DNA from: Promethearchaeia archaeon
Lineage (GTDB): Archaea; Asgardarchaeota; Lokiarchaeia; Sigyniarchaeales; SOKP01
NCBI GenBank assembly: GCA_049671145.1
Contig: JBATUM010000185.1
Span: forward strand, 1,828 to 65,827
Length of the DNA: 64,000 nt
Reading direction: 5' to 3'
Each line of letters begins with the position of its first letter. The stretch's first letter is position 1. Below are positions 44,801-63,406 of the stretch, in pieces. A model generated the notes under the pieces. It was not told the DNA's origin. It did not search any database and was given only the letters and a program-made list of their open reading frames with translations. Position numbers and translations under genes: made by a program.

Positions 44801-45658
44801 TTTAGTAAAGACTTAAGTAAAAAAATGATTACTTATCTGTATAAAGAATTTATTTACCCTAGTGGCAAATCTACACATCCAGTTAGTTCAGATTATTTTA
44901 TAGACCAAGTACTCATCTTGGGTGAAGTTCTCAAAAGCTTGAATAATTATTACGAGCCAGAGACATTTAAGGAAAATCTAAAAGCTCTTCTCAATAGCAG
45001 AGAGTTTCGTTCTTATAATAATTTAGGTGGTTCTCAAAAGCAAGAATTCATTAATAACCTAATTAAAAATGTATGGAAAAATTCATATGAAAGTTTATGT
45101 TTAGAATTACTTTACAAAGAATTCACATACCAAGGTAAGGAAGCATTATATTACAAACCAGAAGATGTGCTTATTGAGAAAACGACTTGTACAACTGTTT
45201 TAAAAAGTCCTGGAGATAACTTTTTCCAACCTACTGAAATTTATCTAACTTTTGGTGAACATGAATTTAAATTTGATAAACGTGCTGGAAATGGTATAAT
45301 ACATATTTTTGCAGGACATTGGGCTGATTTCGCTAGATTACATCCTGATCTTAATACTCCTGAAGCCATAGCAAAATTCATATTTGAACTAATTAAGTCT
45401 CAGAAGGGAGTCGTTATGGAAGATGGAGGTAAAATAGTATATGCATTCCGATTTAAAGGGGAACAAAAAGTCCGTTATGTAGAACTTTTAGTTGATGATG
45501 GAGGACCAATGGGTCCAGAAGGTAGATTACATACAGCATATCCAGTAGATCTTACAAAATCCAAATATAAAGATAAATATATAGAATACAGAAATTATTT
45601 TATAAGACATTCAAATCTAATTCAAAATGATATAGACTTAAAAAATATACTAGTATAA
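41867..45658 (+). CDS. 5'-truncated paralog (orphan module) of the giant gene's 3' end, with a distinct CT3 domain
   Basis: The 1,263-codon ORF has only a TTG start. Its first about 500 aa are collinear with giant residues encoded at about 32520-34290. Decayed, frame-broken homology continues upstream (41700-41866). The C-terminus carries a third variant of the CT domain. Confidence 0.7.
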   Translation: MLWDNLLSMGASDPDVFVALDFDDLNLDYFLMTSELPAYNFRPGYSYPNTNNLDNVYHTYAVNTLGYVEYLVQHSSNNQFDTIRPVCKDGRPQYEFVERDSYDKVLPQSVLYQPIVLDQYRFSQLRPQLGHLIVNVQCRPHDYNNSIGINPYVMNAVEADVYKAKIPLFQHEFDYPVQNVYIDIVKSNPEYENGILSNLNLKYLAQDIYVNESYYAFEQGQLYFTAPIETLITQKYPHYRTALKDIWRIEGMNSKVYYRLHVYFDVFVPDLTEETHRLALAQASSYAIMDYFNQYTYAEVTANMISEIAYTETVTFWSTIISAPMMMFGSYLVEGLEEGIARAGVQMALTTLTAPIKEVFQEIIMDGFIEAFAENFADIMGWSDDVGYWLSALATSGRETLLGPLGKLTWGKIREMTKLDLEIKNTVKLMQQATQSQDTDTANKLRQTLEDLYRQQSEARQQKEQEKKTWKKLLASDFFKGVLMTIPSAFIGGFNIFSFMGMQNMLSGTLSHINIKTFSKIRAVQQASRRGKLQHILDEYGIEGDVLSRNIESNLKQPTDIDGEALHNLFKEQNEEDLPGVKNTIVFNPNPKAAKTVEKINIPNKFEEIRLANWVDELTKDYKFEDKKKISDQVSKTTNNVEETELKSDIMIGDLYEGLFYQFNKIRIGNLYHEFYATGTLQTDGKKVSKLLYSKQLITDAIIMLSSTKYKGVPIIIDQEINFIVLEAIIAKIKEGHTITQLERIIMDIGIFIEGRYDIIGKVNSASDFNEKFFEKTKRNVKKLGILKVIGRSMFGKLKPGAKVAYEIKNEGEVYNVDDIIVFYRDGVKIVHRVEYIFESNGEIFYVTEGVNSDTNPYVDSDLVSNDQVIGRVTEMSEQDLSALIEMAEQGKVPSIEGLGMSNALEKVYQSLYKTSKSLRNMRDNPIGLTREQLLDFVINKISEINVEAFTDIDKVKEARIRILTTCYEMIERNIYSWFSKDLSKKMITYLYKEFIYPSGKSTHPVSSDYFIDQVLILGEVLKSLNNYYEPETFKENLKALLNSREFRSYNNLGGSQKQEFINNLIKNVWKNSYESLCLELLYKEFTYQGKEALYYKPEDVLIEKTTCTTVLKSPGDNFFQPTEIYLTFGEHEFKFDKRAGNGIIHIFAGHWADFARLHPDLNTPEAIAKFIFELIKSQKGVVMEDGGKIVYAFRFKGEQKVRYVELLVDDGGPMGPEGRLHTAYPVDLTKSKYKDKYIEYRNYFIRHSNLIQNDIDLKNILV
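44237..44494 (+). other. Sec11/S26B signal-peptidase-like (S24/S26 fold) domain embedded in the orphan module
   Basis: The boxes occur in the canonical order: GRSMFG (box B, Ser), DDIIVF (box C), KIVHRV (box D, His), VTEGVNSDTNPYVD (box E, diverged from TKGDNNxxxD), then QVIGRV. Confidence 0.55.
45265..45655 (+). other. CT3 putative toxin domain (divergent member of the CT1/CT2 family)
   Basis: FKFDKRAGNGIIHIFAGHW...PEAIAKFIFELIKSQ...EGRLHTAYPVD aligns with CT1 FWLELGNQFSGFEHILYD...REDIATLILNTIKTQ...SNGYIISAYPQ. Confidence 0.5.
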
Positions 45659-45728
45659 AACTAAAATTAATAAACTATTATCTCTATCTATTTTTTTAAT
45701 TAGGATCAAAAATCAATCTGATGTTATT

Positions 45729-46568
45729 ATGGGTTTTTATAAAATAGACGGAAAAAAATATGAGGTAAAAAAAGATTATATCAATCTATATGAATGTGGA
45801 TTAAATTTAATTCGTGATATTATTGGTTTAGACCAACTGGTAAATTTAAGAGCTTTATTGTTAGAACGTAACAATATTAGTGATATCGAAGGATTGGAAA
45901 ACCTTATAAATTTAAAAATTTTAAACTTAGAGGATAATCATATTAATGAGATTAAGGGATTAGAGAAACTTACAAATTTAGAGACATTGAAATTGAATAT
46001 TAATTCAATAAGTAAAATAGAACAAATTGAAAATTTAACGAATTTAATAGAATTAAACTTAAGTTCAAACAATATTAAAATAATAGAAGGACTTACGAAA
46101 TTGATAAAATTAGAAAAATTATCTTTGGCAAATAATCAAATTTCCAAAATTTCTGGTTTAAATTCGTTAAAAAATCTCTCTCTATTAACTTTAGATTCTA
46201 ATAAAATCACAAAAATAGAGAATCTACCCATATCAAAAAAATTAGAATCTTTAAGTTTAGGTGATAATAAAATCACTGAAATTTCTGGCTTAGATAATTA
46301 CAGGAATTTGATACTTTTATATTTAAGAAATAATAAGATTAGTGAAATTACGGGTTTAAAATCTCAGAATAATTTGGAATATCTTGATTTAAGCAATAAT
46401 AATATTAAAGAGTTAAAGGGATTAGAGAGGATGACAAAATTAACTCAATTAGAATTTGGTGGAAATTTAATAGATCCTAATTTGATTGAAAAATTAGGTG
46501 GTTTAGATAGAAGTGGATGTGCATTACAACCTCAAAAGTTTGTTGAATATTGTAGAAAAAATAAATAG
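45729..46568 (+). CDS. Leucine-rich repeat protein (about ten 22-aa LRRs, SDS22/internalin-like)
   Basis: The unit LxxLxxLxLxxNxIxxIxGLxx repeats regularly, for example LENLINLKILNLEDNHINEIKG and LEKLTNLETLKLNINSISKIEQ. No TM segment or signal peptide is visible. Confidence 0.85.
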   Translation: MGFYKIDGKKYEVKKDYINLYECGLNLIRDIIGLDQLVNLRALLLERNNISDIEGLENLINLKILNLEDNHINEIKGLEKLTNLETLKLNINSISKIEQIENLTNLIELNLSSNNIKIIEGLTKLIKLEKLSLANNQISKISGLNSLKNLSLLTLDSNKITKIENLPISKKLESLSLGDNKITEISGLDNYRNLILLYLRNNKISEITGLKSQNNLEYLDLSNNNIKELKGLERMTKLTQLEFGGNLIDPNLIEKLGGLDRSGCALQPQKFVEYCRKNK

Positions 46569-46628
46569 TTTCTAATTAAACTTTCTTTCCTTTACCTCCC
46601 TCCCCTGTGGTGCCCCCTCCTGAAAAAG
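46563..46628 (+). repeat. GC-rich direct repeat, copy B
   Basis: AAATAGTTTCTA...CTCCCTCCCCTGTGGTGCCCCCTCCTGAAAAAG. It is the partner of copy A at 39025-39078. Confidence 0.6.
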
Positions 46629-46725
46629 TAAGCGAAAAAAATTATTTTGAATTAGAACCTCTATTTTAAGAAATTTGAAACACACTAAATTTTTATTAAT
46701 CGGTTAATTCTATAAAAATGAAGAT

Positions 46726-47316
46726 ATGACTAAAAATATTGATTTACATACCCAACTTGTATTGAAGTTATTAAATGGGTTAAATTCTAAACCGATAGAT
46801 GGAAAAATAAAATTCCAAAAGATAGCTTTCTTGGTTTTAAGGAATTTTGAAGAGATATTTGAGTTTTTTGATTTCAAAGCTCATAGATTTGGTCCTTATA
46901 GTGAATCTTTGAATTATACTTTAGAAGAAGTTAAGAACAAGGAAGAAGCACAAATAGAGAAAGATACAATAAAAATTACTGAAAATGGGAGAAAAAAATT
47001 AAATGAATTAGAATCCATTACAGAGTTAAGCGAGAAAGAGAAGAAAAATAAGGAATTAATTGAAAAAGCAATTGAAAATATAAAGGAAGACTTTATCAAT
47101 TTCACCAGTGATGAGATGTTAGCTTTTATTTATAAAAGTTATCCTAACTACATAAGTGATTCTATTGTAGCCGATAAAATGGACTATGAGAAAATATTTC
47201 TTGAGTTATATGATAAAGGTGAATTAGGAATATCAAAAATTGCTGAGTTAATGGACTGGGAGTTTCAAGATGCATACGATTTTATAAAAAAGAACACCAA
47301 GTTACAAATCTTATGA
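46726..47316 (+). CDS. Putative antitoxin (C-terminal UPF0175-like HTH; N-terminal Panacea/DUF4065-like region)
   Basis: The C-terminus GELGISKIAELMDWEFQDAYDFIKKN resembles the UPF0175 HTH that partners with PIN toxins. The N-terminus KFQKIAFLVL...FKAHRFGPYSESL resembles the Panacea pattern. The stop overlaps the PIN gene start (ATGA). Confidence 0.45.
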   Translation: MTKNIDLHTQLVLKLLNGLNSKPIDGKIKFQKIAFLVLRNFEEIFEFFDFKAHRFGPYSESLNYTLEEVKNKEEAQIEKDTIKITENGRKKLNELESITELSEKEKKNKELIEKAIENIKEDFINFTSDEMLAFIYKSYPNYISDSIVADKMDYEKIFLELYDKGELGISKIAELMDWEFQDAYDFIKKNTKLQIL

Positions 47317-50892: not shown

Positions 50893-53800
50893 TTGTTTAA
50901 TATGAGTTTAAAATATAGCGATTATCTGAAAAACAAAAAAAACGATAAAAAATATAATGAATCTCGTTTTGAAGATGAGGGTGATAATTCTGATTATTTA
51001 GATATTTGGACGGTAAATCCTTTTTATAAAGATATTAATACTAAAAAGTTAAGAGCCAAAATAGGCTTTTTTGCAATTTTAATCTTAGCAACATCGTTTC
51101 TAATTCTATCTCTCTTTTCTAAAATTAATTACTTAATAGGAGCAATAGCTTTCCTTCTAGTATTGCTATTTTATGAAAATATCTTTAACTTTTTCAACAA
51201 CCTCTTTACAAGCGTTCAGGGATTGAAGTGGATCAATCCATATAAAGATTTGATATTCTGGACAAATGATCCTGAAACCCTTGTAATGGTAAATAAGAAA
51301 AATTCGTTGGTATTTGCAATTCAAATATTTGAAGTTAAAACCTTGCCTGAGAATGTCCATCCTACTTTAAATCATTTTCTTAAAGCACTAAACAATGCAA
51401 ATATTAAATACTCGTATCAGGTCGTACAAACTCCATTGATGTATCAAAAACTCAAAATAAAGAAAATTAGTAATAATGAAACTTCAATTTATTTTAGTGT
51501 ATTTGATCAGAGAAAAGGCATTTTAACTAAAAGCAAAATTGATAATTTAGTTCAAACTGTACGGTTTAACTCAAAAATATTCAAGTCTCATCTTAGTTCG
51601 AATTTTCATCATACACAAATCTCCTTATTAAGCGGGCTTAATTTAATTAACGCGATTAGAGCAATTTTTTGTGGAATTAATCTTGATAAAATAGAGTTTA
51701 GAGACCTTAACAATGAGCATTCTAAAAACAATGTTCGTTACATAGTAAAATTAATAGTTATAGCTCTTTTTATAGGATTAGTATCTTATTTTTCAACGTA
51801 TTTTTCACTTCCTTGGATATTCATACTCTTATTAGATATTATAATCATAATGGCGCTCATTTTCATTTGGTGGGAAGATTTGTTATATTCTATTTCAAGG
51901 GTTTGTTTTCTTAATAATATAAACGTAAAATCTGTTGATCCCTTCATAGATATTAATTTTTATCGAATGAAAGGGTGTAGAGATACGCTTTTTCTTCTCT
52001 TAGATGATCACTTATTAATTGGACTCAAACAATTTAGCTTAAAACATGCGATTCAGAAATGCTTTATATATTCCGAGAAACTTTTCCGAGAGCTGAATAA
52101 TCAGAAAATAACTTTTATTTATACTCTTCAGGCTATACCTTTATTACCTAGCGATTTTAGCAAAAAATGTTCTAAATTTCTAAATGAAAAAGGATATTCA
52201 GATATGAAAAGAATATTTGGGGAAACAGTGCTTGGTGGAACATCTACTCCTCCAGCTAAAAATGCCCCCCTAGTGTTTAAAAATTGGTTAAACATGAGAT
52301 CAGGGATTTGGAACACAATTTTAACAGTGTCAGTATTATCATATCATTTTATTAATCCAAGAGATATTAGCCATTTTGAGGATGTAGAGGAAGACCTAAT
52401 AAGTAAGTCTGAAATTATGCTAAGGGCATTTGAGGACAATTTTCTCAATCTTAAATTAACTCAATTGAGAAATCATAAACTAATTAATGGATATCGATTT
52501 GTGTCTCTTAAAAATAGTTTATTCAAGGCAAAGAACACAGGTTTACCTTGTGTATATTTCCAAGGAAAGACCTTAATATATCTAAATGCTATTTCAAATG
52601 AATTTAAAAAAGGATTAGAAACCAAAATCGCTGCAGAATTTAATACTCCCCTCCATTTGAAAAATGATATTATTATAGGAGAAACCATCAATACTGAGTT
52701 CTTAGAAAAAGAAGGTGAATTAGGCTTTAAACTTGAGCAGGTAAAGCAACTACTAATTACTAATGGGCTTTCTGAGCAAAGAGAACACACAATGATGAAG
52801 ATTGTAACGGAACTTATAAAGATAGGAATACCATGTGTGATATTTGATTATTCAGGAAAGTGGTCGAAACTAATCAGTAATTTTAAAAATACGTACTTAG
52901 AAGAGACCTTTTTATATTTCAAATTAGGACGCTCATTTAGCCTGTATTTAATAGATTCAGAAGAAGATTATGATAAACATAACTTAGAATATTTAAACTT
53001 ATTTTACGATGTATTTGCGTTAGCCTTTAAGGAACAAAGAAAAAGTGTTGATCTTCTCAAAGAATCTGTAACAAAAAATAAGGAAATTGATATAAGCACA
53101 CTTGCTTTAGAGCATGAAATGGAAGAACAACTCTTTAAAAAAAATAATTATAATAGTTTGCTTGAGCTTTTACAGGGATTTATTGATTGGAGAGCTTTAT
53201 TTTCATCTAGATCGTTAAAATTTGAACAAGAAATTAAACCTATTGATTTTCTTAAAATTGATAAAACGATCATCATTGATTTATCTTTATTAGAAGAATT
53301 GAAACAAAAAAATTTCAGTACCTTTGTTCTCTTATCCAAATTCATACATCATCTTAGAAATGTAAATGATTTTCACAGAAAAGTTATTATTATTCCTCAT
53401 ATCGATCTTTTTTTTGATGCATATTACATTGATAATTACAATATGGTTGATTATGGTACAATCGAAAAGTTTTTAGATCCATTTCTTGACAATGGATTTG
53501 GGCTAATTTGTTCAGCAAATCAAATACGATATCTGCATTCTCATGTGTTTACCTACTTTCCAAATATCATTACATTTAAAGCTACGGATCCTCGAGATAT
53601 TGCGGTGTTAAAAAACACAATAAATTTGCAAGAATTACAAGGAACAGGTTATTATAGTTCAAAACGAAATAATACATACCAAATTGATTATCTTATGAAT
53701 TTGCGAAAAAATGAAGTCATTGTAAAAAGATCTGATATTAATCAACCATTTCCGGGAGAAATTAATTACGATCAACTCCAATTAACCCCTCTCCTTTCAC

Positions 53801-54717
53801 AGGATACAATAGCGGTTTATATGGAAAGGCAAGGATATGCTTATAAAGATCATGAGAGACGTATCTTAGAAAGAGCTAAAGAGACACTTTTTGAAAAAGA
53901 TTTTGGAATCTATTCGGAATTTATTGATGATATAATTAAGTTTTTGGCTAATATAAGTGCCGTTGATAAGATTGGGGGGAATTATGAGCATAAACTTAAA
54001 GAAGAACTTCTAAAATATATTCATTCAAACGCAATACATAAAACGAAAGATAAGAAGAAAATTAAGCAATTAAGAGATGCCCTTTTCCGCATTCTTAAGC
54101 AACAAAGTTATTTAGTTGAGAGTCACCCACTTCAAGCGAGTGGAGGGCAAACTACACGCACTTGCTATAAAGTCGGACAAAAATATCATAACGCACTTAA
54201 GGATTATTATAGCTCAAAAAAAAGGTTAGCCCCTAATATTTCTGTTGATGTAATTGAAAAGAATATAAAGAATAATTCTAAGGGGCTTAATATGTTAAAA
54301 GGGGTATCTTCAAATGATACAATCAGAAGTGATAAATTTAAAGATATAGTATTTAGAGAATTGGGAAGTTTTATATGGCAATTATTTAAATTGCATGACG
54401 CAAATGAGAATAAACACTACGAAACATCATTAAAAGTTGGTAAAGATTTGATCTTTAATTATCTTACATCATTATACAAGATATTTCTTAAAATGAACGG
54501 AGGTCAAACTCCTGAAAGCATAAAACTTCCCTCATTTATTACGGCTCTGACTTCTTATAAAGTTATTCCATTTACTATGAATATGATTAAAGATTATTGT
54601 CAAAAATCAAAGCAATTATCCCAAAATGCAGAAAATCCCGAAAAGAATGCTCATGAATTAGAAGATTTAATCATGGAATTCTACAAGACTACTAGAATGC
54701 ATTTTATAACAAATTGA
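50893..54717 (+). CDS. Membrane-anchored HerA/VirB4-like protein with degenerate Walker A and B (pseudo-ATPase)
   Basis: There are two TM hairpins (about 51058-51175 and 51733-51875). The C-terminal half is collinear with the next gene, but its P-loop reads TNGLSEQREHT against MSGLTGVGKTT, and its Walker B reads VIIIPHIDLF against VIMMDEVGSI. Shared blocks are IIIDLSLL/VYIDLSGF and NIITFKATDPRDI/IKILFRTDKEDL. The ATG at 50902 may be the true start. Confidence 0.6.
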   Translation: MFNMSLKYSDYLKNKKNDKKYNESRFEDEGDNSDYLDIWTVNPFYKDINTKKLRAKIGFFAILILATSFLILSLFSKINYLIGAIAFLLVLLFYENIFNFFNNLFTSVQGLKWINPYKDLIFWTNDPETLVMVNKKNSLVFAIQIFEVKTLPENVHPTLNHFLKALNNANIKYSYQVVQTPLMYQKLKIKKISNNETSIYFSVFDQRKGILTKSKIDNLVQTVRFNSKIFKSHLSSNFHHTQISLLSGLNLINAIRAIFCGINLDKIEFRDLNNEHSKNNVRYIVKLIVIALFIGLVSYFSTYFSLPWIFILLLDIIIIMALIFIWWEDLLYSISRVCFLNNINVKSVDPFIDINFYRMKGCRDTLFLLLDDHLLIGLKQFSLKHAIQKCFIYSEKLFRELNNQKITFIYTLQAIPLLPSDFSKKCSKFLNEKGYSDMKRIFGETVLGGTSTPPAKNAPLVFKNWLNMRSGIWNTILTVSVLSYHFINPRDISHFEDVEEDLISKSEIMLRAFEDNFLNLKLTQLRNHKLINGYRFVSLKNSLFKAKNTGLPCVYFQGKTLIYLNAISNEFKKGLETKIAAEFNTPLHLKNDIIIGETINTEFLEKEGELGFKLEQVKQLLITNGLSEQREHTMMKIVTELIKIGIPCVIFDYSGKWSKLISNFKNTYLEETFLYFKLGRSFSLYLIDSEEDYDKHNLEYLNLFYDVFALAFKEQRKSVDLLKESVTKNKEIDISTLALEHEMEEQLFKKNNYNSLLELLQGFIDWRALFSSRSLKFEQEIKPIDFLKIDKTIIIDLSLLEELKQKNFSTFVLLSKFIHHLRNVNDFHRKVIIIPHIDLFFDAYYIDNYNMVDYGTIEKFLDPFLDNGFGLICSANQIRYLHSHVFTYFPNIITFKATDPRDIAVLKNTINLQELQGTGYYSSKRNNTYQIDYLMNLRKNEVIVKRSDINQPFPGEINYDQLQLTPLLSQDTIAVYMERQGYAYKDHERRILERAKETLFEKDFGIYSEFIDDIIKFLANISAVDKIGGNYEHKLKEELLKYIHSNAIHKTKDKKKIKQLRDALFRILKQQSYLVESHPLQASGGQTTRTCYKVGQKYHNALKDYYSSKKRLAPNISVDVIEKNIKNNSKGLNMLKGVSSNDTIRSDKFKDIVFRELGSFIWQLFKLHDANENKHYETSLKVGKDLIFNYLTSLYKIFLKMNGGQTPESIKLPSFITALTSYKVIPFTMNMIKDYCQKSKQLSQNAENPEKNAHELEDLIMEFYKTTRMHFITN

Positions 54718-54825
54718 AATCAAGTTTTTTATTTAAATATCCCTAAAATATTAACTTTTAAAACAAAATTCGAGGTGGTTTAGATCGAACCAGAATTTTG
54801 GCATGGAGTAGTAAAAATTACTCAA

Positions 54826-56772
54826 GTGCCTAATATGAAGAACAGTAGTGAAAATAATAACTCATGGCTCTGTAATCCTTTTGGAGATGCCAGAGTTTAT
54901 ACTACAAGGATTACGCTAGACGAGGAATTTTCGTGGGAATTCTTTTTTAAAGAAGATTCTAAAAAGGAAGCTTATCAAAGTGCTGAGTCGTTTCTCCTTT
55001 ATTTAAAAGAGGTTTATCCAGGGTTAGCAGGACAAGTGAAAGTCAGAGGAATAAATTATATGGACTTACAAACAAAGAAGCAGATCTTTGAACTTATTTT
55101 ACCCAATCCTGTATTTGCGAAAAAAATCAACTTAATCAAAAAAATAATGAATTTATTTCCAGTGAGCAAAGAGTTTAAAAAGAGTTTTTTTATCTCATGG
55201 CAGGAAGATGATTCTGTCATTAAAGAACTGGAAAATTTTGCGAAACTAAAGCAACATATTACTTTAGATGAGAATTATAAAGCAAAAGTATTCTTTCTAA
55301 TTGAGCCAAAATTCAATAATAATTCAGAAATAAGTAACCAGGTAATTGAAGAAATAAAAGAATATATGGCGATGGATATACGCAATGCGGATAATGAAAA
55401 TGCATCTATAAGCGACGCACCTCCGGATACATGGAGATATATCTTAGAGGAGATGGTGTTTTGGAAGAATATTTTAGATTGCGATACAGGCAGGTTTTAT
55501 CGACGCGTGGAAGGAGGAATCCCTCCAGAAATGATACCTGCTTTTATTAGTCCTAAAGTAGTTGATTTTAGTTTTAATCATGATATTCCTTTAGATAAAG
55601 CATTTACTATTAAAAATGAGAAGATTGGGTTTAATTCTGACTTTAGAAACAATAGTTCTCGAATTCTTTTAGGATATTATATCAAACATGGGGTTATTAC
55701 TGAGAATCCTGTTTATCTACACTTAGAAGATTTAGTCCAACATATATTTATGTCAGGATTAACTGGTGTAGGGAAAACTACTATAGAATCCCAATTAAAA
55801 CAACGTATAAAGAAGACAGGTAATCCCTGTGGAGTGTTAACGATCAAATTGTTGAAAGGAAATGAATCTTTTATGTTTAGCTCAGAGATTATGCTCAAAA
55901 AAGGAGATCCCAAATTACGAGTACCTTATATCATGGAAGGAGAAGAAATTGACCAAATTATAGAACAAGTTGCTGGATACTCTGTTGCTTCAGTGGGATT
56001 AAAAAACGTTGTTGTTTCAATTATGGAAATCGTATTAACCCATGAATATGAAAATAAAGGTAAATTTCCAGCAAAAATCAAGCAAGCTTTTGCACGCGTT
56101 CATTTACATCTGGAGGAGAATCCTTACCATAAAAAATTTCAAACTAACATTTTGAAAGCTTTAGAAAATCGGGTAATGAAACTTTTATCAAATCCAATTC
56201 TGGAGAAAATTTTGGAAACGGGACCAATCCCAGAGTGGTTTATTGAATGGCAAAATGGTAAAGATGTGTATATAGATTTATCAGGATTTAAGAAAAGTGC
56301 GCAAAGACTGCTGGTTCACGCGATCTTCCAATTAATTCGTACTTGTTCCCCTGAATTAGATGCAAAAAAACTGATGCATAGTAAAGATCCTTCTCAGAAG
56401 CTTAAAAATGTCATAATGATGGATGAAGTAGGCTCTATTTTAGGAAAACCAAAGTATCAAAGTTATGATGATGACGAAACTATAACGAAGCATTACTTAG
56501 AAATTGTGTTTGAAGAATTTTTATCCGCCTTCAGAAGTAGAGGAATTGGTATAATCCTTGGGGATCATATGCCTTCCAGATTATTTGAAGGAGTTTATAA
56601 ACTTCCTAGCATAAAAATATTGTTTAGAACAGATAAAGAGGATTTACAAAAGTTTGGGTTAGATGTAGAGGATATCATGGTTATTGACACTCTAAAAAAT
56701 CGGTTTGCATTCATTAAAGATGGTGTTAATTCAAGAAGATTTCTATTCTATACGACTGACTACGAATTATAA
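54826..56772 (+). CDS. HerA/FtsK/VirB4-superfamily ATPase (intact Walker A/B)
   Basis: Walker A is GLTGVGKTT and Walker B is NVIMMDEVGS. The family-typical YIDLSGF block and the C-terminal GIGIILGDHMPS...IKILFRTD block are present. The ATG at 54835 is a possible alternative to the GTG start. Confidence 0.7.
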   Translation: MPNMKNSSENNNSWLCNPFGDARVYTTRITLDEEFSWEFFFKEDSKKEAYQSAESFLLYLKEVYPGLAGQVKVRGINYMDLQTKKQIFELILPNPVFAKKINLIKKIMNLFPVSKEFKKSFFISWQEDDSVIKELENFAKLKQHITLDENYKAKVFFLIEPKFNNNSEISNQVIEEIKEYMAMDIRNADNENASISDAPPDTWRYILEEMVFWKNILDCDTGRFYRRVEGGIPPEMIPAFISPKVVDFSFNHDIPLDKAFTIKNEKIGFNSDFRNNSSRILLGYYIKHGVITENPVYLHLEDLVQHIFMSGLTGVGKTTIESQLKQRIKKTGNPCGVLTIKLLKGNESFMFSSEIMLKKGDPKLRVPYIMEGEEIDQIIEQVAGYSVASVGLKNVVVSIMEIVLTHEYENKGKFPAKIKQAFARVHLHLEENPYHKKFQTNILKALENRVMKLLSNPILEKILETGPIPEWFIEWQNGKDVYIDLSGFKKSAQRLLVHAIFQLIRTCSPELDAKKLMHSKDPSQKLKNVIMMDEVGSILGKPKYQSYDDDETITKHYLEIVFEEFLSAFRSRGIGIILGDHMPSRLFEGVYKLPSIKILFRTDKEDLQKFGLDVEDIMVIDTLKNRFAFIKDGVNSRRFLFYTTDYEL

Positions 56773-56803
56773 TTATAGGAGGGAGGGAATCTGAATTAGT
56801 GAA

Positions 56804-59800
56804 GTGGGGGATGAGTGGGATGAATATGAAAAAGATGAAGACACGAATCCTGAGAAAGAAAAGGATTTAGACGAGTTAGAGGAAGGATATGACCCATTTT
56901 CGTTGAAATCAAAGGTTATGGAAAATGAAGAAGAACAAGAGTATGATCCCTTTTCTTTGCATAGAGATGAGTGTGATACAGAAACAACTGAAGATTACGA
57001 TCCTTTTTCCTTAACTGAGGGCGATTCTGCGAATGAAATGGATGAAGATTATGATCCATTTTCTTTACATAGAGATGAAGTAAGTGAGGAACAAACTGGA
57101 GAAGAAGACATTACTCAAAAAGAAGAACGAGAGGAAATATGTGAAAATATTGATTCCCAATCTACTCTATTAGTGCAAAGAGAGTCTAATAAAGATGGAG
57201 AAACTTGTGATGAACGAGCAGAGGAAAATAGTGAGCAAGAGAAAAATCAAACTGAAGATACTGAAGAAATAATAATGCCTGATCCAGAAAAATATGAACA
57301 AGACCAAGAGACAATTTATGATCCAGCTGAGATTGATTTTATTAGAGATATGGAAGAACTAGGGAGTATTTTAAAAGAATCTGAAGAAAGTAGAGGCATT
57401 TCTGAAGAGGAATTAGAGGAATATGATAATACAGGTTTTAATGCAGAGCAAGCATATCAAGAAATAAAAGAAAAAAATAGAGAAAAAGAATTAGAGCAAA
57501 AGGAATTGCCTTTAGAGGAACATGATCTCCAAAATACGGTTGAGAAGGCGGAGGAGCAACATAATGAAAATTTAAAAGAGAGAGAATGCAAGGAAGAAGA
57601 TGAATTACCAAAGGAAATAACCGATTCGGAGGAATTTCAATACCTTTGGGAAGAATATGATAGACTTGAACAAGAAGGAACGAACCTCGAAGAGATTTCT
57701 GAATTAATGCATGAAGCGGAAGAGACGTATCAAATGTTAAAAAATTATGAGGAAGAATTAGAAGAAATCTATGAACGACAAGAAAAGCAAGGTTTAGAAT
57801 CAATTGACCATAAGAACGAGGAAAAACCAGAAGATTATAGAATAGAAGTTGAGAGTGTATATGAAGCAGAATATTTTATTGATGCTGAAATACAATTACA
57901 AACAGAAGGTAAATCATCAGAAGAAATAACCAATGAAATGCAAAAAGTTGAAGAAAAATATGATTTTGAGGAAAAAGTGGAAAAACTTCATGAAAAACAG
58001 AGAAAGGATAAATATAATTCAGTTGATCATGAGAATGAAGAGGATGAAGATGACCAAAGGGAGGAGATTGACAGAGTAGATGTGATAGAAGGTGTTGTAG
58101 AAGCTGAAGAAGAATTCCATAAGCAAGGAAAATCTCAAAAAGAAATAGATGAGAAGACTGAAAGAATTGCCAATAAATTTTATAAAAATGAAATAGAAGA
58201 ACAGCTACAAAATAGACCAGAACAAGAGGTTAATAAGGAACTTGGAACTGAAGTTACTGAACCTGAATTTGCTTTAGAAGAACGAGATCAGATCAACCAC
58301 ACCTCTTTTGATAATAATGATCAAAAAATTGAAATTTATCCAGAGATGGAAAATAGAGAAATATTAGAAGAAATCGATATAGAAGTAGATGACTCCACAA
58401 ATGATAGAGGATCGTATCAAGAAAGTATGGAAAAAGCTATTGAAAAAGAAAACAAACCAGAAACCGAAGAATCACAGGAAAAAGAATATGAACTCCTCCA
58501 ACAATTATATCACCAAGATACAGGGAGAAGACCTCAATATAGAGGAAGAGAAACAAAAGAGTATAGTCAATGGTTAGAACATCAAAAGTTAAAAACTAAG
58601 AAAGCCAAAGAAAAAGAAGTGAAAGAACAAGAAGAGGAGAGATGGAAAGAGATACTTAAAGATTGGATAGAAGAATCTAAAGATGAAATGCCCAGCTCTG
58701 AACTTAAATTAGTTTTAAAAGAGATAATTCAAAAGTTCGAAATATTAGAAGAGTTATATAGAGAAGGTGTAAATTTAACTGAAATCGAAAGAGATCATTG
58801 GCTCTCTAAATTAATAAAGCTTCAAAACAAATATCCAATTCATTTACATTTATATCAAAATATCTACGGATTTAAAGTATATGTTCAAGAGAGTCATCCT
58901 TGGGATATTAATCGAATAAAAAACAAATTTCTTAGACATTTGGTTAAAAAATATAAAATTTTAAAACAAAACTTAAAAAATATTAATTTCGGCAATATAA
59001 AAAGTTCAGAATTAAGAAGCATTATTAAAAAATATCATAAATTTACGTTAAATAAATATTTAAAAGTTAAATATCCAAATAGAGGCTTTCAAATAACCAA
59101 ACAATTTTTCAAATGGTTAAAGACTGACGGAAACGCTGCTAAGATGGATAAAATAACTAATATTTGTAAAGAAATTAATACTAATCAAGAACTATATAAC
59201 TTTTTTATTTATCTGGTTATAAATTCATTATTATCTCTTAAAAAAATCTCTGAAAAATTTAAATTTCTCGGTTTTAATATCCACTCATCCGCTTTGGGAA
59301 AATATGCTAAAAAAATTTTAGGAGCAGAATATAAAATTCGATTTCCAAGTGGCAAGAAGAGAATTCAATCATTTAATAACAAAAATTTATGTTTTCACAA
59401 TCTCTTAAATAAAGTTTTATTACAGAAATTTTATGAATTTCGGGAAGAATTTCCTAAAAGTTATCCAAATACAGGTAGGATTATAGGTGATAAGTTTATT
59501 TTATGGATTAAGAAAAATTTGAAAAATTTTGATGAAAAGAGATATTTACTTAAATTGATTGAAAGAGTTAATGGAAATAGAGAGATTACTCAATATATAA
59601 TAAGTTTAATTTACCATTCCGAATTAACTCAATTGGATATTGTAAATGAGCTTTGGAAGAAAAACTTAAAAATTTCCCGAGAAGCAATAAGAAATATTGC
59701 GGAACAGAATTTGTCTTATGATAAATACAAAGAAAGATTTTCAAGATATAAAAAATCTTATAATTATGATGAGCAATTATCATCAAATAGCTCTCTTTAT

Positions 59801-61603
59801 CAAAGTTTATTAAATCCAGTATTACATACCTCATTTAAAAATTATTACCAAACTATTGGGAAGTACGCTAATATAGGAAGAAAAATTTCTAATTCCTTTA
59901 AATCATGGATTAAAAGATCAAAATATAAACTTAATAAGCGTCAAAGAATCCTTAATTTAATTGAAAACATCAATAAAAATAATGAAGTTGAAAGATTTAT
60001 CATCAATATTATTCGAAATTCAATAGATAATTCAAAAGAAAGAACTTCTTTAGGCGAAATTTCGAGAATGTTTAAAAACTTTGGCTTAGATGTCTCTCGA
60101 ATGACTGTAACTAGAATCGCATTGGAAAAAGTATTTAATAATGATCTAGAGATATTCCAAAAATATTTTAAACCTGGACAAGATGAAGAATTTAAAGATA
60201 TTGATCTTCAAAACTTATTCTTTGACGATATAACTAATTTTGGAGTAGTAAGTAAATTTAAAAGCTTTAGAAGAATAACGAGAGAGGAAGGAAGAGAGTT
60301 ATATCCGAATATAGGTACAAAGATTTCACCATATTTTATTGAATGGATAAAAAAAAATATTAAAAATGATGATGAAGAGAAGCAAAAATTAATTCAATTA
60401 TGCGAAAAAATAGACGAAGAGTCGCAAATTTTACAACTAATCCTTCACAGAACATTATCTTCAGATTTAAATATATCTGAAATCGCGCTTGAAATGGAAA
60501 ATCTAGGACTTAATGGTCAACGGGGTACCATTTCAAAAAACGTATTAAAGTATATATATAATAATGATAAAGAAAATCTAAACTTAAGATTTCCATCAGA
60601 TTTAAGTTCAGAATTGGGAACTTGGACTCATATATGCATTAGAGATTTATTATCTAAGCATTTTATATCCATTAATTATAAATATTATTCAGAAGTACAA
60701 ATATTTCCTCCTAGTAATAAAAAGGCAGATGGGATTTTACTAAATATTAGACAAAATAGATATTTGCATGAAAAGTTAAATCTTTCTAAAGATGGAAATA
60801 GATTTAAAAACAAAATGGGAATTAAAAATAATATCATTCAAAAAATTAAAGCTATTCAATTTGATTTTACAAGTGATATTTCTGATGAAAATATTATAGA
60901 CAAATGCATAAAATATCAAAATCCAAATATTTTATTGATTATCGTATGTACAAACTGGAAAAATAAAAAGGCTAATAGAAGTTTGCCTCCTCTCTCGAAT
61001 AAAGTTAAGAATAAAGATAATCTTTGTATTATTAGTGCTAAATTATTCACTGAATTTATAGGATTGAATCAAACTTTAAAACAAGAATTCCTCAATATTA
61101 TTTCTAAAAGCAATAAATCAAATTTAACTTTCTTAAAACAATATCATAAGAAAAATTATCCAAATCTTACTAATTCTGGAACTATAGAATTGAAAAATGA
61201 TATTGGCTCCAAATTATTTAATAGAGTTTTTAAAGATCTTGAAATAAGCGAGGTAAATGAACTCATTGATACCTCAAAACTTGCATCTAAATTTGTTTCA
61301 TTTTGTTTGGAAAATATAAATTCCCAATCGAATCAGCATGAATTAAAATCTCATATAATATCAAAAGGTGGATATAAAGGAGGATACTTCAAATTTACAA
61401 CTAAAAATTTATATGAATTTAAGAAATTTGTAAAAACAAAAAATCTAAATTTAAACTATTTGTCTAAGATTTTGGCAAATATACATGGAATTCGTAATAT
61501 TTTTTATAAAAAGATATTAAGATATAATTCAACACTTAAGAGAAGGACAGAACAAAGAGTAATTTTGATTAAGAAATCTTTTTTAGAAAGTCAAATACAC
61601 TGA
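56804..61603 (+). CDS. Large (1,599 aa) acidic/coiled-coil protein with four HTH-like modules and a possible nuclease-like end
   Basis: The GTG start is preceded by TAGGAGGGAGGG. The N-terminus has four (E/D)YDPFSL motifs, followed by a long E/K-rich region with about 70-aa repeats, four about 125-aa repeats each ending ...RFPS/KPG, and a C-terminal alpha/beta region. Confidence 0.75.
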   Translation: MGDEWDEYEKDEDTNPEKEKDLDELEEGYDPFSLKSKVMENEEEQEYDPFSLHRDECDTETTEDYDPFSLTEGDSANEMDEDYDPFSLHRDEVSEEQTGEEDITQKEEREEICENIDSQSTLLVQRESNKDGETCDERAEENSEQEKNQTEDTEEIIMPDPEKYEQDQETIYDPAEIDFIRDMEELGSILKESEESRGISEEELEEYDNTGFNAEQAYQEIKEKNREKELEQKELPLEEHDLQNTVEKAEEQHNENLKERECKEEDELPKEITDSEEFQYLWEEYDRLEQEGTNLEEISELMHEAEETYQMLKNYEEELEEIYERQEKQGLESIDHKNEEKPEDYRIEVESVYEAEYFIDAEIQLQTEGKSSEEITNEMQKVEEKYDFEEKVEKLHEKQRKDKYNSVDHENEEDEDDQREEIDRVDVIEGVVEAEEEFHKQGKSQKEIDEKTERIANKFYKNEIEEQLQNRPEQEVNKELGTEVTEPEFALEERDQINHTSFDNNDQKIEIYPEMENREILEEIDIEVDDSTNDRGSYQESMEKAIEKENKPETEESQEKEYELLQQLYHQDTGRRPQYRGRETKEYSQWLEHQKLKTKKAKEKEVKEQEEERWKEILKDWIEESKDEMPSSELKLVLKEIIQKFEILEELYREGVNLTEIERDHWLSKLIKLQNKYPIHLHLYQNIYGFKVYVQESHPWDINRIKNKFLRHLVKKYKILKQNLKNINFGNIKSSELRSIIKKYHKFTLNKYLKVKYPNRGFQITKQFFKWLKTDGNAAKMDKITNICKEINTNQELYNFFIYLVINSLLSLKKISEKFKFLGFNIHSSALGKYAKKILGAEYKIRFPSGKKRIQSFNNKNLCFHNLLNKVLLQKFYEFREEFPKSYPNTGRIIGDKFILWIKKNLKNFDEKRYLLKLIERVNGNREITQYIISLIYHSELTQLDIVNELWKKNLKISREAIRNIAEQNLSYDKYKERFSRYKKSYNYDEQLSSNSSLYQSLLNPVLHTSFKNYYQTIGKYANIGRKISNSFKSWIKRSKYKLNKRQRILNLIENINKNNEVERFIINIIRNSIDNSKERTSLGEISRMFKNFGLDVSRMTVTRIALEKVFNNDLEIFQKYFKPGQDEEFKDIDLQNLFFDDITNFGVVSKFKSFRRITREEGRELYPNIGTKISPYFIEWIKKNIKNDDEEKQKLIQLCEKIDEESQILQLILHRTLSSDLNISEIALEMENLGLNGQRGTISKNVLKYIYNNDKENLNLRFPSDLSSELGTWTHICIRDLLSKHFISINYKYYSEVQIFPPSNKKADGILLNIRQNRYLHEKLNLSKDGNRFKNKMGIKNNIIQKIKAIQFDFTSDISDENIIDKCIKYQNPNILLIIVCTNWKNKKANRSLPPLSNKVKNKDNLCIISAKLFTEFIGLNQTLKQEFLNIISKSNKSNLTFLKQYHKKNYPNLTNSGTIELKNDIGSKLFNRVFKDLEISEVNELIDTSKLASKFVSFCLENINSQSNQHELKSHIISKGGYKGGYFKFTTKNLYEFKKFVKTKNLNLNYLSKILANIHGIRNIFYKKILRYNSTLKRRTEQRVILIKKSFLESQIH
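56887..57067 (+). repeat. Four YDPFSL short linear motifs in an acidic context
   Basis: GYDPFSL, EYDPFSL, DYDPFSL and DYDPFSL are spaced 12-13 aa apart. The second and fourth are followed by HRDE. Confidence 0.9.
59069..60600 (+). repeat. Four tandem modules of about 125 aa with a helix-turn-helix-like core
   Basis: Each module begins (K/S/L)Y(P/A)N-x-G-x-x-I-x-x-x-F-x-x-W(I/L)K and contains a segment such as LSLKKISEKFKFLGFNIHSSALGKYAKKIL, LTQLDIVNELWKKNLKISREAIRNIAEQNL, SLGEISRMFKNFGLDVSRMTVTRIALEKVF or NISEIALEMENLGLNGQRGTISKNVLKYIY. Confidence 0.6.
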
Positions 61604-61634
61604 ATTAGGTAAAGGTTTACCTTAAACTTATAGT

Positions 61635-61913
61635 TTATTTGTTAGATCTTCTATCCGCCTTTGCCCTCTGAGAAACAGTTCCAGCATGTACGCTACAACT
61701 AATACAATAGTATTTCGTCTTAGTGGGAGCTTGAATAATCGTTCCTGATTTTTTAAGCTCTGTATACATTCTTCCATCTACTAATGGAACTCTTCTTGTC
61801 ACAGCTTTAGCTTTACTCCGAGCAACAAAACGCCCACACTTAGCACACTGAACTTTTGAGTATTGGCCTTTACGTGAACCGCTTTTACCGCCACTTTTTC
61901 TCTTTTTGGGAAT
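61635..61913 (-). CDS. rps26e: Ribosomal protein eS26
   Basis: The minus-strand translation is (M)PKKRKSGGKSGSRKGQYSKVQCAKCGRFVARSKAKAV...KYYCISCSVHAGTVSQRAKADRRSNK*. It matches the eS26 pattern (PKKR..G, C-x2-C ... C-x2-C-x-H). It is absent from the ORF track because the only plausible start is ATT. Confidence 0.8.
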   Translation of the reverse strand: MPKKRKSGGKSGSRKGQYSKVQCAKCGRFVARSKAKAVTRRVPLVDGRMYTELKKSGTIIQAPTKTKYYCISCSVHAGTVSQRAKADRRSNK

Positions 61914-62055
61914 TAAAATCAGCCTTTTTAAAATAGTTTTAGATGAAGTTTTAGTTCTATTTATTTGAATAAGATAAACCTTAAAAAATTTATGCTTTCC
62001 CTTAGTTTTTTAACAATTTCGAGTGATTTCAATGTAATACTTTAGAAGAAATGCT

Positions 62056-62787
62056 TTATTTCGATTTTTCTTTATCAATTTTATGCAAAGATTTAAATGA
62101 ATATAAAATTCTCTGGAGGATGGTAAAAATAAGTAATCCCGTATATATTATAATGAAAATAGGAAAAAATAGTGTGAAATGAGAGCCATATATGAGTTTA
62201 GATAAATAATAGATCCAAGATTCAGTAATAAAAGCGAACCACAAAATTATAAGTCTTTCCGCTCTTTCCATGAATCCAATTCCTTTCATTTCAATTCCCT
62301 CATTTTCAGCACGCGCCCTTATATAAGAAATCATTATTACTAAAAAGAGAAGAATATAACCCCATAGATAATCGATCAATTTTCCAAATATCAGGCTTAA
62401 AATAATTACAGCATCAGATAATCTATCTAAATTTGAATCTAGGAATGCTCCTGCCCTTGAATTATGACCAGTTCTTCTAGCAACTTCTCCATCAAAAACA
62501 TCAAAAGTTCCAGCCCAGAACATTAGAAAAGGTACAATCCAAGCCGACCATATTGGAAAGTGGAGTCCTCCAATTGAAATAAAAAAAGCAGCAGCAATAG
62601 AAAATATAAAACCAATAAAAGAAAGAGAATTAGGAGAGACATTATGCTTAATTAAAAGCTTTACTGGACGATCAATAAATTTATCAAGTAGCTTTCTTTG
62701 ATTTTGTCTCTTTGTATTCGCTTTTTCTTTGTCACTCATTTTCATTGCCGTTTTCGAAATTAGAGATATTATAATTTTAACATTCAT
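62056..62787 (-). CDS. CDP-alcohol phosphatidyltransferase family (archaetidyl-inositol-phosphate/serine synthase-like)
   Basis: The full signature D-x2-D-G-x2-A-R-x8-G-x3-D-x3-D is present in DVFDGEVARRTGHNSRAGAFLDSNLDRLSD. The protein has multiple TM helices. The true start may be an internal Met (MKMSDKEK). Confidence 0.85.
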   Translation of the reverse strand: MNVKIIISLISKTAMKMSDKEKANTKRQNQRKLLDKFIDRPVKLLIKHNVSPNSLSFIGFIFSIAAAFFISIGGLHFPIWSAWIVPFLMFWAGTFDVFDGEVARRTGHNSRAGAFLDSNLDRLSDAVIILSLIFGKLIDYLWGYILLFLVIMISYIRARAENEGIEMKGIGFMERAERLIILWFAFITESWIYYLSKLIYGSHFTLFFPIFIIIYTGLLIFTILQRILYSFKSLHKIDKEKSK

Positions 62788-62803: not shown

Positions 62804-63406
62804 TCATATTAATAACTCTAAATTTAATCTTATTAATCGAATTACAGAAGAAGCTAAATATGATTGAGTTCCTAAACTTAAATTTGGTAGTTTTAACTCA
62901 ATCAATTCTTTTGATTTTAATATTTCACCAGTTTGACTACCAATAACGAAAATAATGTGCTCTTGTGATGATATCTCCTTTATATATTTAAAGAAATCTT
63001 GTCCACTCTCATCTAGAACATATATCGTATATTTTTGCTTTTTATAGGCGTTTAACGTATTAAAGATATCTTGATTAATGTATTTAATATTTTTTAAAGG
63101 GTTTTTACTATACTTTAGCTGACCAGTTCTATTTTGGATTAAATCTACAAAATATTCTGTAAGTAGAATTTCATTTTTTGGAAATACCTCCTCATCCAAT
63201 GATTCAGGGTCAAATACAAAAGTACCATATTTTTCTAAAAACACCCAAATTTGGATATTATTATTAAATCCTTTTTGATTCAATAAGGCAGCTAGAATGC
63301 ATCTTGAAATTACATCTAATCTTCCCGTTGAACCAGGAATTTCTTTAATTGTATAATTTGTAATATCTACACTACTAGATTTAATGAAGAAAAGTATTTC
63401 CATCAA
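62804..63406 (-). CDS. trmY: tRNA (pseudouridine54-N1)-methyltransferase TrmY-like SPOUT protein
   Basis: IKEIPGSTGRLDVISRCILAAL matches the conserved TrmY/DUF358 N-terminal motif (LPGSxGRLDxxCRC). The length, about 200 aa, is typical. Confidence 0.65.
   Translation of the reverse strand: MMEILFFIKSSSVDITNYTIKEIPGSTGRLDVISRCILAALLNQKGFNNNIQIWVFLEKYGTFVFDPESLDEEVFPKNEILLTEYFVDLIQNRTGQLKYSKNPLKNIKYINQDIFNTLNAYKKQKYTIYVLDESGQDFFKYIKEISSQEHIIFVIGSQTGEILKSKELIELKLPNLSLGTQSYLASSVIRLIRLNLELLI

Follow-up and report, generated by a model that had tools for sequence, protein, structure and literature searches.

Four YDPFSL motifs at the N-terminus of an acidic protein from a Promethearchaeia archaeon: a candidate docking array for the neighboring HerA/FtsK-type ATPase

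The stretch of DNA analyzed here (the window, 64,000 nucleotides (nt) with a G+C content of 32%) covers positions 1,828 to 65,827 of contig JBATUM010000185.1 in the assembly GCA_049671145.1 of a Promethearchaeia archaeon, an Asgard archaeon of Lokiarchaeal type. It carries, one after the other on the plus strand, the genes for a membrane protein of 1,274 amino acids (aa; 50893..54717), for an ATPase of the HerA/FtsK superfamily (54826..56772; 648 aa as called) and, 31 nt behind the latter, for an acidic protein of 1,599 aa (56804..61603, GTG start). The acidic protein is identical to WBH31_09155, a hypothetical protein of a Promethearchaeia archaeon in an NCBI metagenome-assembled genome (MAG), and opens with four copies of the hexapeptide YDPFSL. 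We here describe this array, its relatives and its linkage to the ATPase, and we weigh the reading that the array is recognized by the ATPase.

The YDPFSL array occupies 56879..57094 on the plus strand (aa 26-97) and consists of four 18-aa units of the form x-x-x-YDPFSL plus a nine-residue acidic spacer. The copies are located at 56888..56905 (aa 29-34, in the context EEGYDPFSLKSK), 56942..56959 (aa 47-52), 56996..57013 (aa 65-70) and 57050..57067 (aa 83-88), all on the plus strand, and their starts at aa 29, 47, 65 and 83 give a period of exactly 18 aa. Copies 1 to 4 are preceded by G, E, D and D, respectively; copies 2 and 4 are followed by HRDE and copy 3 by TEGD. A preliminary description of this DNA had reported four evenly spaced copies within 61 residues, each behind a G, E or D and two of them followed by HRDE, in an Asp/Glu-rich N-terminus. 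All of this was recovered: G28 to L88 span 61 residues, and aa 1-110 contain 42% Asp+Glu at a net charge of -37. The start formerly given, 56887, falls on the third position of the Gly28 codon, a trivial offset. No further YDPFSL occurs in the six reading frames of the 64-kb window.

Such a repetition is not expected from composition. Among 100,000 composition-preserving shuffles of aa 1-110 none contained a non-homopolymeric 6-mer three or more times, and just 39 contained one twice; the observed count for YDPFSL is four. At the peptide level the copies are 100% identical, and at the DNA level they differ by 2-5 of 18 nt per pair, with all differences being synonymous and touching five of the six codons. 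The spacers in between share 8-42% of their residues. Tandem Repeats Finder reported no 54-nt DNA repeat at the array, and without a DNA-level tandem repeat a recent DNA duplication was ruled out as its origin. Since identical peptides are thus combined with synonymous divergence, unrelated spacers and the lack of a DNA repeat, the sequences indicate that purifying selection acts on the array at the level of the peptide. Among orthologues, P0003 keeps five YDPFSL/YHPFSL copies and the protein at locus L025 keeps YHPFSL with HRDE, both with diverged spacers. Y, P, F, S and L are invariant, and the Asp position can be His (YHPFSL in L025 and P0003). Hydrophobic invariant residues together with this Asp/His tolerance favor a contact in a pocket over metal chelation or pure charge mimicry.

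The tail carrying the motifs is predicted to be disordered, as the preliminary description had supposed. In the AlphaFold2 (AF2) model, aa 1-160 reach a predicted local distance difference test score (pLDDT) of about 30 (26-33) and lack secondary structure, and in the charge-hydropathy plot the tail falls well within the disordered range (scaled hydropathy 0.314 versus a boundary of 0.525 at a net charge of 0.31). The motif therefore sits in a predicted disordered segment and is kept while the spacers diverge, both within the protein and between orthologues. Disorder, conserved islands between diverging spacers and a varying copy number are what typically marks a multivalent array of short linear motifs (SLiMs), and the assignment of YDPFSL to this type, made earlier on inspection, is well supported. 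A folded structural repeat or a Ca-binding repeat was ruled out by the AF2 disorder and the hydrophobic nature of the invariant residues.

The gene directly upstream encodes a HerA/FtsK-superfamily ATPase with intact Walker motifs. Walker A reads GLTGVGKT (55756-55779, plus strand, aa 311-318) and Walker B reads VIMMDEVG (56410-56433, plus strand, aa 529-536); G311, G316 and K317 of the former and D533 and E534 of the latter are invariant in an alignment of six sequences. The protein narrowly passes the cutoff of Pfam DUF87 (24.0 versus 23.2 bits), matches the PADLOC HerA model at 6.4e-11 and, in a profile search against PDB, gives weak matches to STIV B204 and Sulfolobus HerA; its sequence by itself retrieved nothing useful from PDB. 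Foldseek with the AF2 model returned HerA structures 9x1m (E=7e-14) and 4d2i (E=2.5e-13), further matches to VirB4 (4ag5), SIR2-HerA, DndH-C and TrwB (E 1e-9 to 1e-14), and 8wod and 8ziq among the top entries. The model is good at aa 270-645 (pLDDT 70-90) and poor in the N-terminal 270 aa, so that a HAS-barrel is unconfirmed.

The preliminary description had named the adjacent ATPases, in the plural, as candidate partners. This holds for the 648-aa protein with its HerA fold and could not be upheld for the 1,274-aa protein, which has four predicted transmembrane (TM) helices (aa 57-92 and 284-326). The C-terminal region of the latter aligns to the ATPase family with an hhalign E of 0.034 and a probability of 1.5%, NGLSEQREHT stands in place of Walker A and the Asp-Glu of Walker B is lost; with so weak an alignment and the Walker residues replaced, calling it an ATPase is unjustified. 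It has no match in Pfam, NCBIfam or PDB, the membrane-protein profile included. Both proteins carry a motif of their own near the N-terminus, SWLCNPFGD in the ATPase (54862-54888) and DIWTVNPFYKD in the membrane protein (51001-51033), and W-x-x-N-P-F is conserved in all orthologues seen (also as SWLFDPFG), whatever the type of the downstream array. The idea that YDPFSL mimics W-x-x-N-P-F was ruled out, as the latter stays invariant next to quite different arrays and does not co-vary with them.

Homologues of the acidic protein were found solely in Promethearchaeota MAGs and metagenomes. The initial homologue search yielded 10 proteins, a profile of the conserved core (alignment A2) matched 60 of 1.84 billion cluster representatives at E<1e-3, and scanning 185,579 species genomes brought up 19 loci, of which every one with a named organism belongs to Promethearchaeota. 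Seven of these loci lie in one MAG and four in another; the MAGs with multiple loci are 9R3_44 (L007-L013, L015) and Loki_b31 (L017, L019, L020, L023). Many contigs with family loci stop within the acidic N-terminal region or shortly before it, and near-identical modules apparently break short-read assemblies there. The cassette thereby helps to account for breaks in Lokiarchaeal assemblies at these loci. A scan of viral contigs returned no family member and PHROGs no match, hence nothing points to a viral origin.

All family members for which the N-terminus is available open with a tandem acidic/aromatic array of 3-8 copies, with periods of mostly 13-18 aa, 33-50% D+E and 2-9% K+R. The commonest core is aromatic-[D/N/E]-Pro. 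The motif itself varies by clade: YDPFSL, YHPFSL, DDPFDE, YNPF(T/E)(P/C)PDY, GYDPFKPPD and (E/Q)FDPN; FFDPNVDP, WDPNP, WDPTP, WDPG, FEPDYEL, F(V/I)PNYEL and FDPDEDYDW; and WN(E/D)IDW, DFNSGFHEM, YDFDGSLD and DELADEYD. The expectation that the motif would recur in homologues was therefore borne out in part: arrays, usually with the aromatic-[D/N/E]-Pro core, are conserved, whereas the exact YDPFSL is absent from most members. Besides the array, three short elements are conserved in or at the edge of the disordered region, namely an N-terminal cap, (Y)ENIxSQSTxLV and DPEEYExDQEPIYDPxEIDFIRDMEELG. The C-terminal third varies, with LAGLIDADG_3 in 12 of 46 members and GIY-YIG, a treble-clef zinc finger or many types of helix-turn-helix (HTH) in others; HNH-like H..H/C..C signatures were seen in the alignment in P0003, P0007 and P0008 (inspection only). 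When aa 1-108 alone were searched against 5.8 billion proteins, 31 candidates sharing words were retrieved, none at E<=10, which is a weak negative because the biased composition suppresses scores.

The linkage between array and ATPase was examined from both sides. With the acidic protein as the starting point, 10 of 16 informative loci have the gene for a HerA-fold ATPase directly upstream. For the ATPase side, 48 loci from a metagenome scan were pooled with the earlier cassettes, which gave 48 cassettes with a readable downstream open reading frame (ORF). An array protein follows directly in 41 of these: in 37 the downstream ORF has at least three aromatic-[DNEHVI]-P or [DNH]PF motifs among its first 220 residues, and in another four the arrays lack Pro. 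Unrelated ORFs in the same loci contain 0-2 such motifs. The gaps between ATPase and array gene are typically 0-31 nt. A divergent form (L056, L058, L060 and related short contigs) has an ATPase of 839-945 aa with 4-7 fused N-terminal TM helices, and the acidic protein behind it (142-202 aa) consists of little beyond an array, a Pro-rich stretch and a basic tail; L056 and L058 have another array protein, of 437-753 aa, behind this one. The divergent cassettes lie at 5227-9937 (L056), 5446-10939 (L058) and 5233-8028 (L060), with repeats of the form FEPxD or YEPLDE.

All cassettes tie the ATPase to the membrane, be it by a separate TM partner such as the 1,274-aa protein of the window, by a TM protein of about 230 aa or by fused TM helices. 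A membrane protein orthologous to that of the window precedes the ATPase at about 60% identity in L002, L006 and L014 and at 90% in L025. At its smallest, the recurring unit thus pairs a membrane-tethered HerA-like ATPase with an array-bearing acidic protein. The ~230-aa protein, with five predicted TM helices and HExxH, was seen in L002 (2929-3651), L005 (7246-7962), L026 (5343-6035) and L027 (7293-7997); in several cassettes its gene precedes that for the ATPase or for the large membrane protein. In L002 it weakly matches Peptidase_M50B; by tblastn it has no counterpart in the window. At L001, the P0003 locus, a fragment at 792-1031 that matches solely the first 80 aa of the 1,274-aa protein abuts the acidic gene (1042-5388), with no ATPase in between, an arrangement which would be either a deleted cassette or an assembly join.

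The acidic proteins are inherited in modules. Identity to the window protein was computed region by region for three relatives. The L025 protein shares 67% in aa 29-88, 89% in aa 89-160 and 38-57% beyond aa 160. P0003 shares 86% in aa 1-28, 68% in aa 29-88, 65-76% in aa 161-724 and 25-32% in the C-terminal part. P0002 shares 33-54% in aa 1-160, 63-80% in the central part and 79-84% in the C-terminal part. Hence P0002 shares the C-terminus and not the array of the window protein, and P0003 the array and not the C-terminus, so that the array does not co-vary with the C-terminal domain. Instead, array type tracks the similarity of the ATPases. ATPases 88, 51, 46 and 45% identical to that of the window accompany Y[DH]PFSL, DDPFDE, [FY][DN]PDEDY and YNPFTPPDY arrays on acidic-protein cores that are 32-53% identical, whereas ATPases of 28-39% identity accompany FNSGFHEM, FEPDYEL, DELADEYD and WNEIDW arrays on cores that are 57-66% identical. 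At least three [D/N/H]-P-F copies are present in 13 of 24 cassettes with an ATPase identity of 40% or more versus none of 24 below 40%. As judged from these comparisons, aa 1-160 form a module that assorts with the ATPase, and the core and the C-terminal DNA-binding/nuclease-like domain assort independently.

We propose, at a confidence that leaves the matter evenly balanced, that the YDPFSL array is a multivalent docking or recognition element for the upstream HerA/FtsK-type hexameric ATPase. The ATPase as partner has indirect, contextual support, namely synteny, downstream proteins that are little more than an array, and the co-inheritance of array type with the ATPase. Several motif copies would bind equivalent sites on the ATPase ring, and spacers of 13-18 residues, about 45-60 Angstrom when extended, could bridge neighboring protomers, so that multivalent binding would give avidity. 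Each contact would be made in a hydrophobic pocket framed by electrostatic steering; EDYDPFSLHRDE is an example of an array peptide that is a candidate ligand of the ATPase. The array would thereby tether a DNA-targeting C-terminal module to a membrane-bound motor, and this tethering would either regulate the motor or hand the protein, or DNA bound to it, over to the motor.

Several observations weigh against docking on the ATPase. Four loci (L003, L018, L022, L024) have no adjacent ATPase, and the last three of them keep their arrays nevertheless; in L022 and L024 the acidic gene lies beside genes for Kae1, Bud32 and L7Ae. Array classes map onto clades of the ATPase, and the cassettes counted for the association are therefore not independent of one another. 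Since the acidic gene adjoins the ATPase gene with its 5' end, linkage alone could yield co-inheritance; breakpoints in the repetitive acidic region could likewise transfer ATPase and array together without any functional link. The motif sequences differ greatly among cassettes whose ATPases share conserved features. Finally, no clear difference in divergence rate was found between the N-terminal domain of the ATPase (aa 1-270) and its ATPase domain, and with an N-terminal domain that is poorly modeled and not more divergent no receptor site can be named.

As to what the whole cassette may do, a HerA-plus-effector defense system is plausible from gene content, because the effector module is swappable and because pAgo/Piwi, Schlafen-AlbA_2, DUF3800, SIR2 or NYN genes adjoin some homologous loci. 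Membrane anchoring and the similarity to VirB4 and TrwB make translocation or DNA transfer an alternative role. A different reading of the array, which we consider unlikely, is that of a translocation signal: the membrane-anchored ATPase would recognize the acidic N-terminus in its unfolded state and thread or export the protein, possibly with DNA, across the membrane, like the coupling ATPases of type IV and type VII secretion systems (T4SS/T7SS), for which short substrate signals are the cue. The constant tie of the ATPase to the membrane and the Foldseek matches to VirB4 and TrwB fit a translocation signal, as do the substrate-like build of the protein, in which a conserved N-terminal region precedes a variable nuclease/DNA-binding C-terminal module, the conserved cap ahead of the array and the multiple family copies per genome. 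On the other hand, Pfam, NCBIfam and PADLOC revealed no pilins, channel proteins, relaxase or EsxA-like proteins in the window or among the called genes of the homologous loci, and a conserved, co-oriented, immunity-like gene is missing downstream. Known T4SS and T7SS signals are moreover single and mostly C-terminal, and HTH arrays and LAGLIDADG domains would be atypical as toxins.

Another explanation, to which we give little credence, takes the acidic tail as a DNA mimic, with its aromatics standing in for bases, that autoinhibits the basic C-terminus or sits as a regulator in the DNA-binding pore of the HerA-type motor. T7 gp2.5 and bacterial single-stranded DNA-binding protein (SSB) have Phe-terminated acidic tails that behave in such a manner. 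One and the same chain has a net charge of -140 in aa 1-560 and of +69 in aa 725-1599, its C-terminal modules are of DNA-binding and nuclease types, and the relatives of HerA are DNA translocases. A DNA mimic is, however, at variance with the missing co-variation between array type and C-terminal domain in P0002 and P0003, and with the existence of array-only proteins that have no DNA-binding domain at all. Simple charge mimicry also needs no exact conservation of a motif, and here Y, P, F, S and L are the invariant positions and the acidic one tolerates His.

It is improbable that the array docks onto an unlinked hub, be it a eukaryote-like adaptor in the Asgard host or a target in a virus or competitor. 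The YDPF, DDPF and YNPF cores in acidic disordered arrays of varying number and spacing do resemble endocytic arrays, the loci that keep arrays without an adjacent ATPase would be accounted for, and the rapid turnover of motifs fits an arms race. Yet a candidate hub domain was found neither in the window nor in the fetched loci, the ATPase is the sole gene consistently linked to arrays, and the search with the N-terminus alone, a weak negative as stated, turned up no other array-bearing proteins. That the repeats lack a specific function, being low-complexity expansions made by slippage or generic Ca2+-binding acidic repeats, could hardly be reconciled with identical peptides amid synonymous divergence and unrelated spacers, with motifs kept between orthologues, with arrays recurring in 41 of 48 cassettes and, for metal binding, with conserved residues that are hydrophobic and not metal ligands, even though the composition of the region is biased, relatives differ widely in copy number and motif sequence, and some clades have DxDG-like repeats such as YDFDGSLD.

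Behind the array, the acidic protein is built from further regions, all on the plus strand. The N-terminal module, predicted to be disordered (56804..57283, aa 1-160), comprises the cap, the array and ENIDSQSTLLV, the local version of the family-wide (Y)ENIxSQSTxLV motif (57143..57175, aa 114-124) downstream of the array. A Glu-rich helical region follows (57284..58483, aa 161-560; AF2 helices at pLDDT 70-88). It opens with the conserved DPExYExDQExIYDPxEIDFIRDMEELG and holds three helical-hairpin repeats of the EGKSxEEI type, hairpins being modeled at aa 170-470 with pLDDT 70-88. The all-helical core, which is the family signature covered by alignment A2, lies at 58487..58975 (aa 562-724) and extends over aa 555-724 in the AF2 model (pLDDT 70-85). 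This model comprised aa 1-724 and was built with an alignment of eight sequences; Foldseek against PDB returned non-specific helical matches for it, all at E>1. The variable basic C-terminal region (58976..61603, aa 725-1599) contains, by inspection only, four HTH-like repeat modules and a possible degenerate PD-(D/E)xK segment. Sequence searches with the acidic protein against Pfam, NCBIfam, PADLOC, PHROGs and PDB found nothing. Each of the four C-terminal modules consists of Y-P-N-x-G-x-x-I-x-x-x-F-x-x-W-I-K-K and an HTH-like segment, and its first part resembles Y-x-Q-x-T-G-K-R-P-x-Y-x-G-x-E-T-K-x-F-x-Q-W-L of the core (58487-58576); by this resemblance core and C-terminal modules may have a common origin.

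The conserved cap, I/M-S-E-x-G-D-E-W/Y (56795..56830, plus strand), begins 9 nt upstream of the called GTG. In the window it reads I-S-E-V-G-D-E-W and starts with ATT at 56795, right behind an in-frame TGA; in 25 family genes the codon at this position is ATT in 12, ATA in seven and ATG in four. The conserved N-terminus of the ATPase, I-E-P-E-F-W-H..KITQVP, begins with ATC at 54784, right behind a TAG, and from its conservation this ATC is probably the true start. By this pattern, translation of both cassette genes seems to begin at a near-cognate codon that immediately follows an in-frame stop.

Downstream, the window contains two archaeal marker genes on the minus strand, for archaetidylinositol phosphate synthase (62056-62787) and TrmY (62804-63406). 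The intergenic stretch 61600-61950 has a G+C content of 33-45% versus about 22% in its flanks and holds no convincing ORF; it gave no Rfam match at gathering score, and its minus-strand fold has a z-score of -1.2. Upstream, more than half of the window is filled by an ORF of 12,290 aa (101-36973, plus strand), with one Laminin_G_3 (aa 1954-2117) as the sole Pfam domain in the first 8,200 aa, the part scanned. A 1,263-aa protein (41867-45658, plus strand) has a signal peptidase I-like segment (TIGR02228 at 5.7e-10, below cutoff) and weak matches to an oligonucleotide cyclase and to the PAZ domain of an archaeal Argonaute; its gene is followed by those for a leucine-rich-repeat protein (45729-46568) and a weakly SocA/Panacea-like protein (46726-47316), both on the plus strand. 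From these similarities 41867-47316 may be a conflict-related neighborhood.

No description of the cassette was found in the literature on Asgard archaea and on HerA-type and related systems; the HerA-type motor with an array-bearing, modular partner is hitherto undescribed. Multivalent SLiM arrays in disordered tails characterize the interaction networks of eukaryotes and have seldom been documented in prokaryotes. Here they define a Promethearchaeota-restricted, multi-copy, recombining modular gene family with swappable homing-endonuclease and HTH-type domains. Should the arrays serve the motor as a recognition code, they would constitute a simple and testable peptide-receptor system and offer a way into an uncharacterized Asgard cassette. 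Taken further, a membrane-anchored HerA/FtsK-type motor might read aromatic-[D/N]-Pro(-Phe) arrays in order to recruit, thread or export DNA-targeting proteins as an Asgard-specific machine, a doubtful proposal that would, if true, amount to a new archaeal defense, DNA-transfer or protein-translocation system.

Compared with known systems, the cassette shares with HerA-NurA, SIR2-HerA and DUF4297-HerA a HerA-fold ATPase beside a nuclease or DNA-targeting partner whose module is swappable. It is none of these, because neither the 1,599-aa protein nor the 46 family members contain a NurA, SIR2 or DUF4297 domain (Pfam, PADLOC). Partners in known HerA complexes bind as folded domains on the N-terminal face of HerA and not via peptide arrays, whereas the partner here bears a motif array at its N-terminus and is acidic over about 560 aa; the ATPase is, in addition, always tied to the membrane, and the family is found in Promethearchaeota only.

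Like the T4SS coupling proteins (VirD4/TrwB/TraD) and the T7SS motors EssC/EccC with their LXG toxins, the cassette has a hexameric P-loop motor at the membrane and a candidate client with a conserved leader and a variable nuclease-like C-terminal domain; similarity of the ATPase model to VirB4 and TrwB (Foldseek) adds to the likeness with T4SS. EssC D2/D3 are degenerate ATPase-like domains, and the 1,274-aa protein offers a weakly similar counterpart in a partner protein. Membership in T4SS or T7SS is not supported, since no apparatus genes were found, and an N-terminal tandem array differs from a single C-terminal signal; secretion would be a reading by analogy. Polymorphic toxins join a conserved N-terminal region to variable toxin domains; the C-termini of the present family vary, but HTH arrays and LAGLIDADG are not established toxin domains. 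No plus-strand ORF of at least 30 aa lies between 61603 and the convergent archaetidylinositol phosphate synthase gene, and no downstream gene is conserved across the homologous loci; without an immunity gene the cassette is not assigned to this class.

Eukaryotic DPF/DPW/NPF arrays (Eps15, epsin, AP180) bind the AP-2 appendage and EH domains. The present arrays resemble them in tandem D/N-P-F motifs within acidic disorder, in variable number and spacing, in drifting spacers and in the logic of multivalent avidity. They differ in that the linked partner is an ATPase and that many members use FDPN, WDPN, FEPDY, WNEIDW or FNSGFHEM. Neither the window nor the fetched loci revealed an appendage or EH domain, with no whole-genome search made, and the likeness is probably convergent. 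The C-terminus DDDIPF of bacterial SSB and the C-terminal peptide D-I-P-x-F-L of FtsZ are hub-docking peptides of DNA-metabolism and division machinery. They, too, place Pro and Phe/Leu behind an acidic run, at the end of a disordered linker, but as a single C-terminal copy that uses the terminal carboxylate, whereas the acidic protein has four internal N-terminal copies. The analogy with DPF/NPF arrays, SSB and FtsZ would thus point to a shared mode of action and not to membership in any of these systems.

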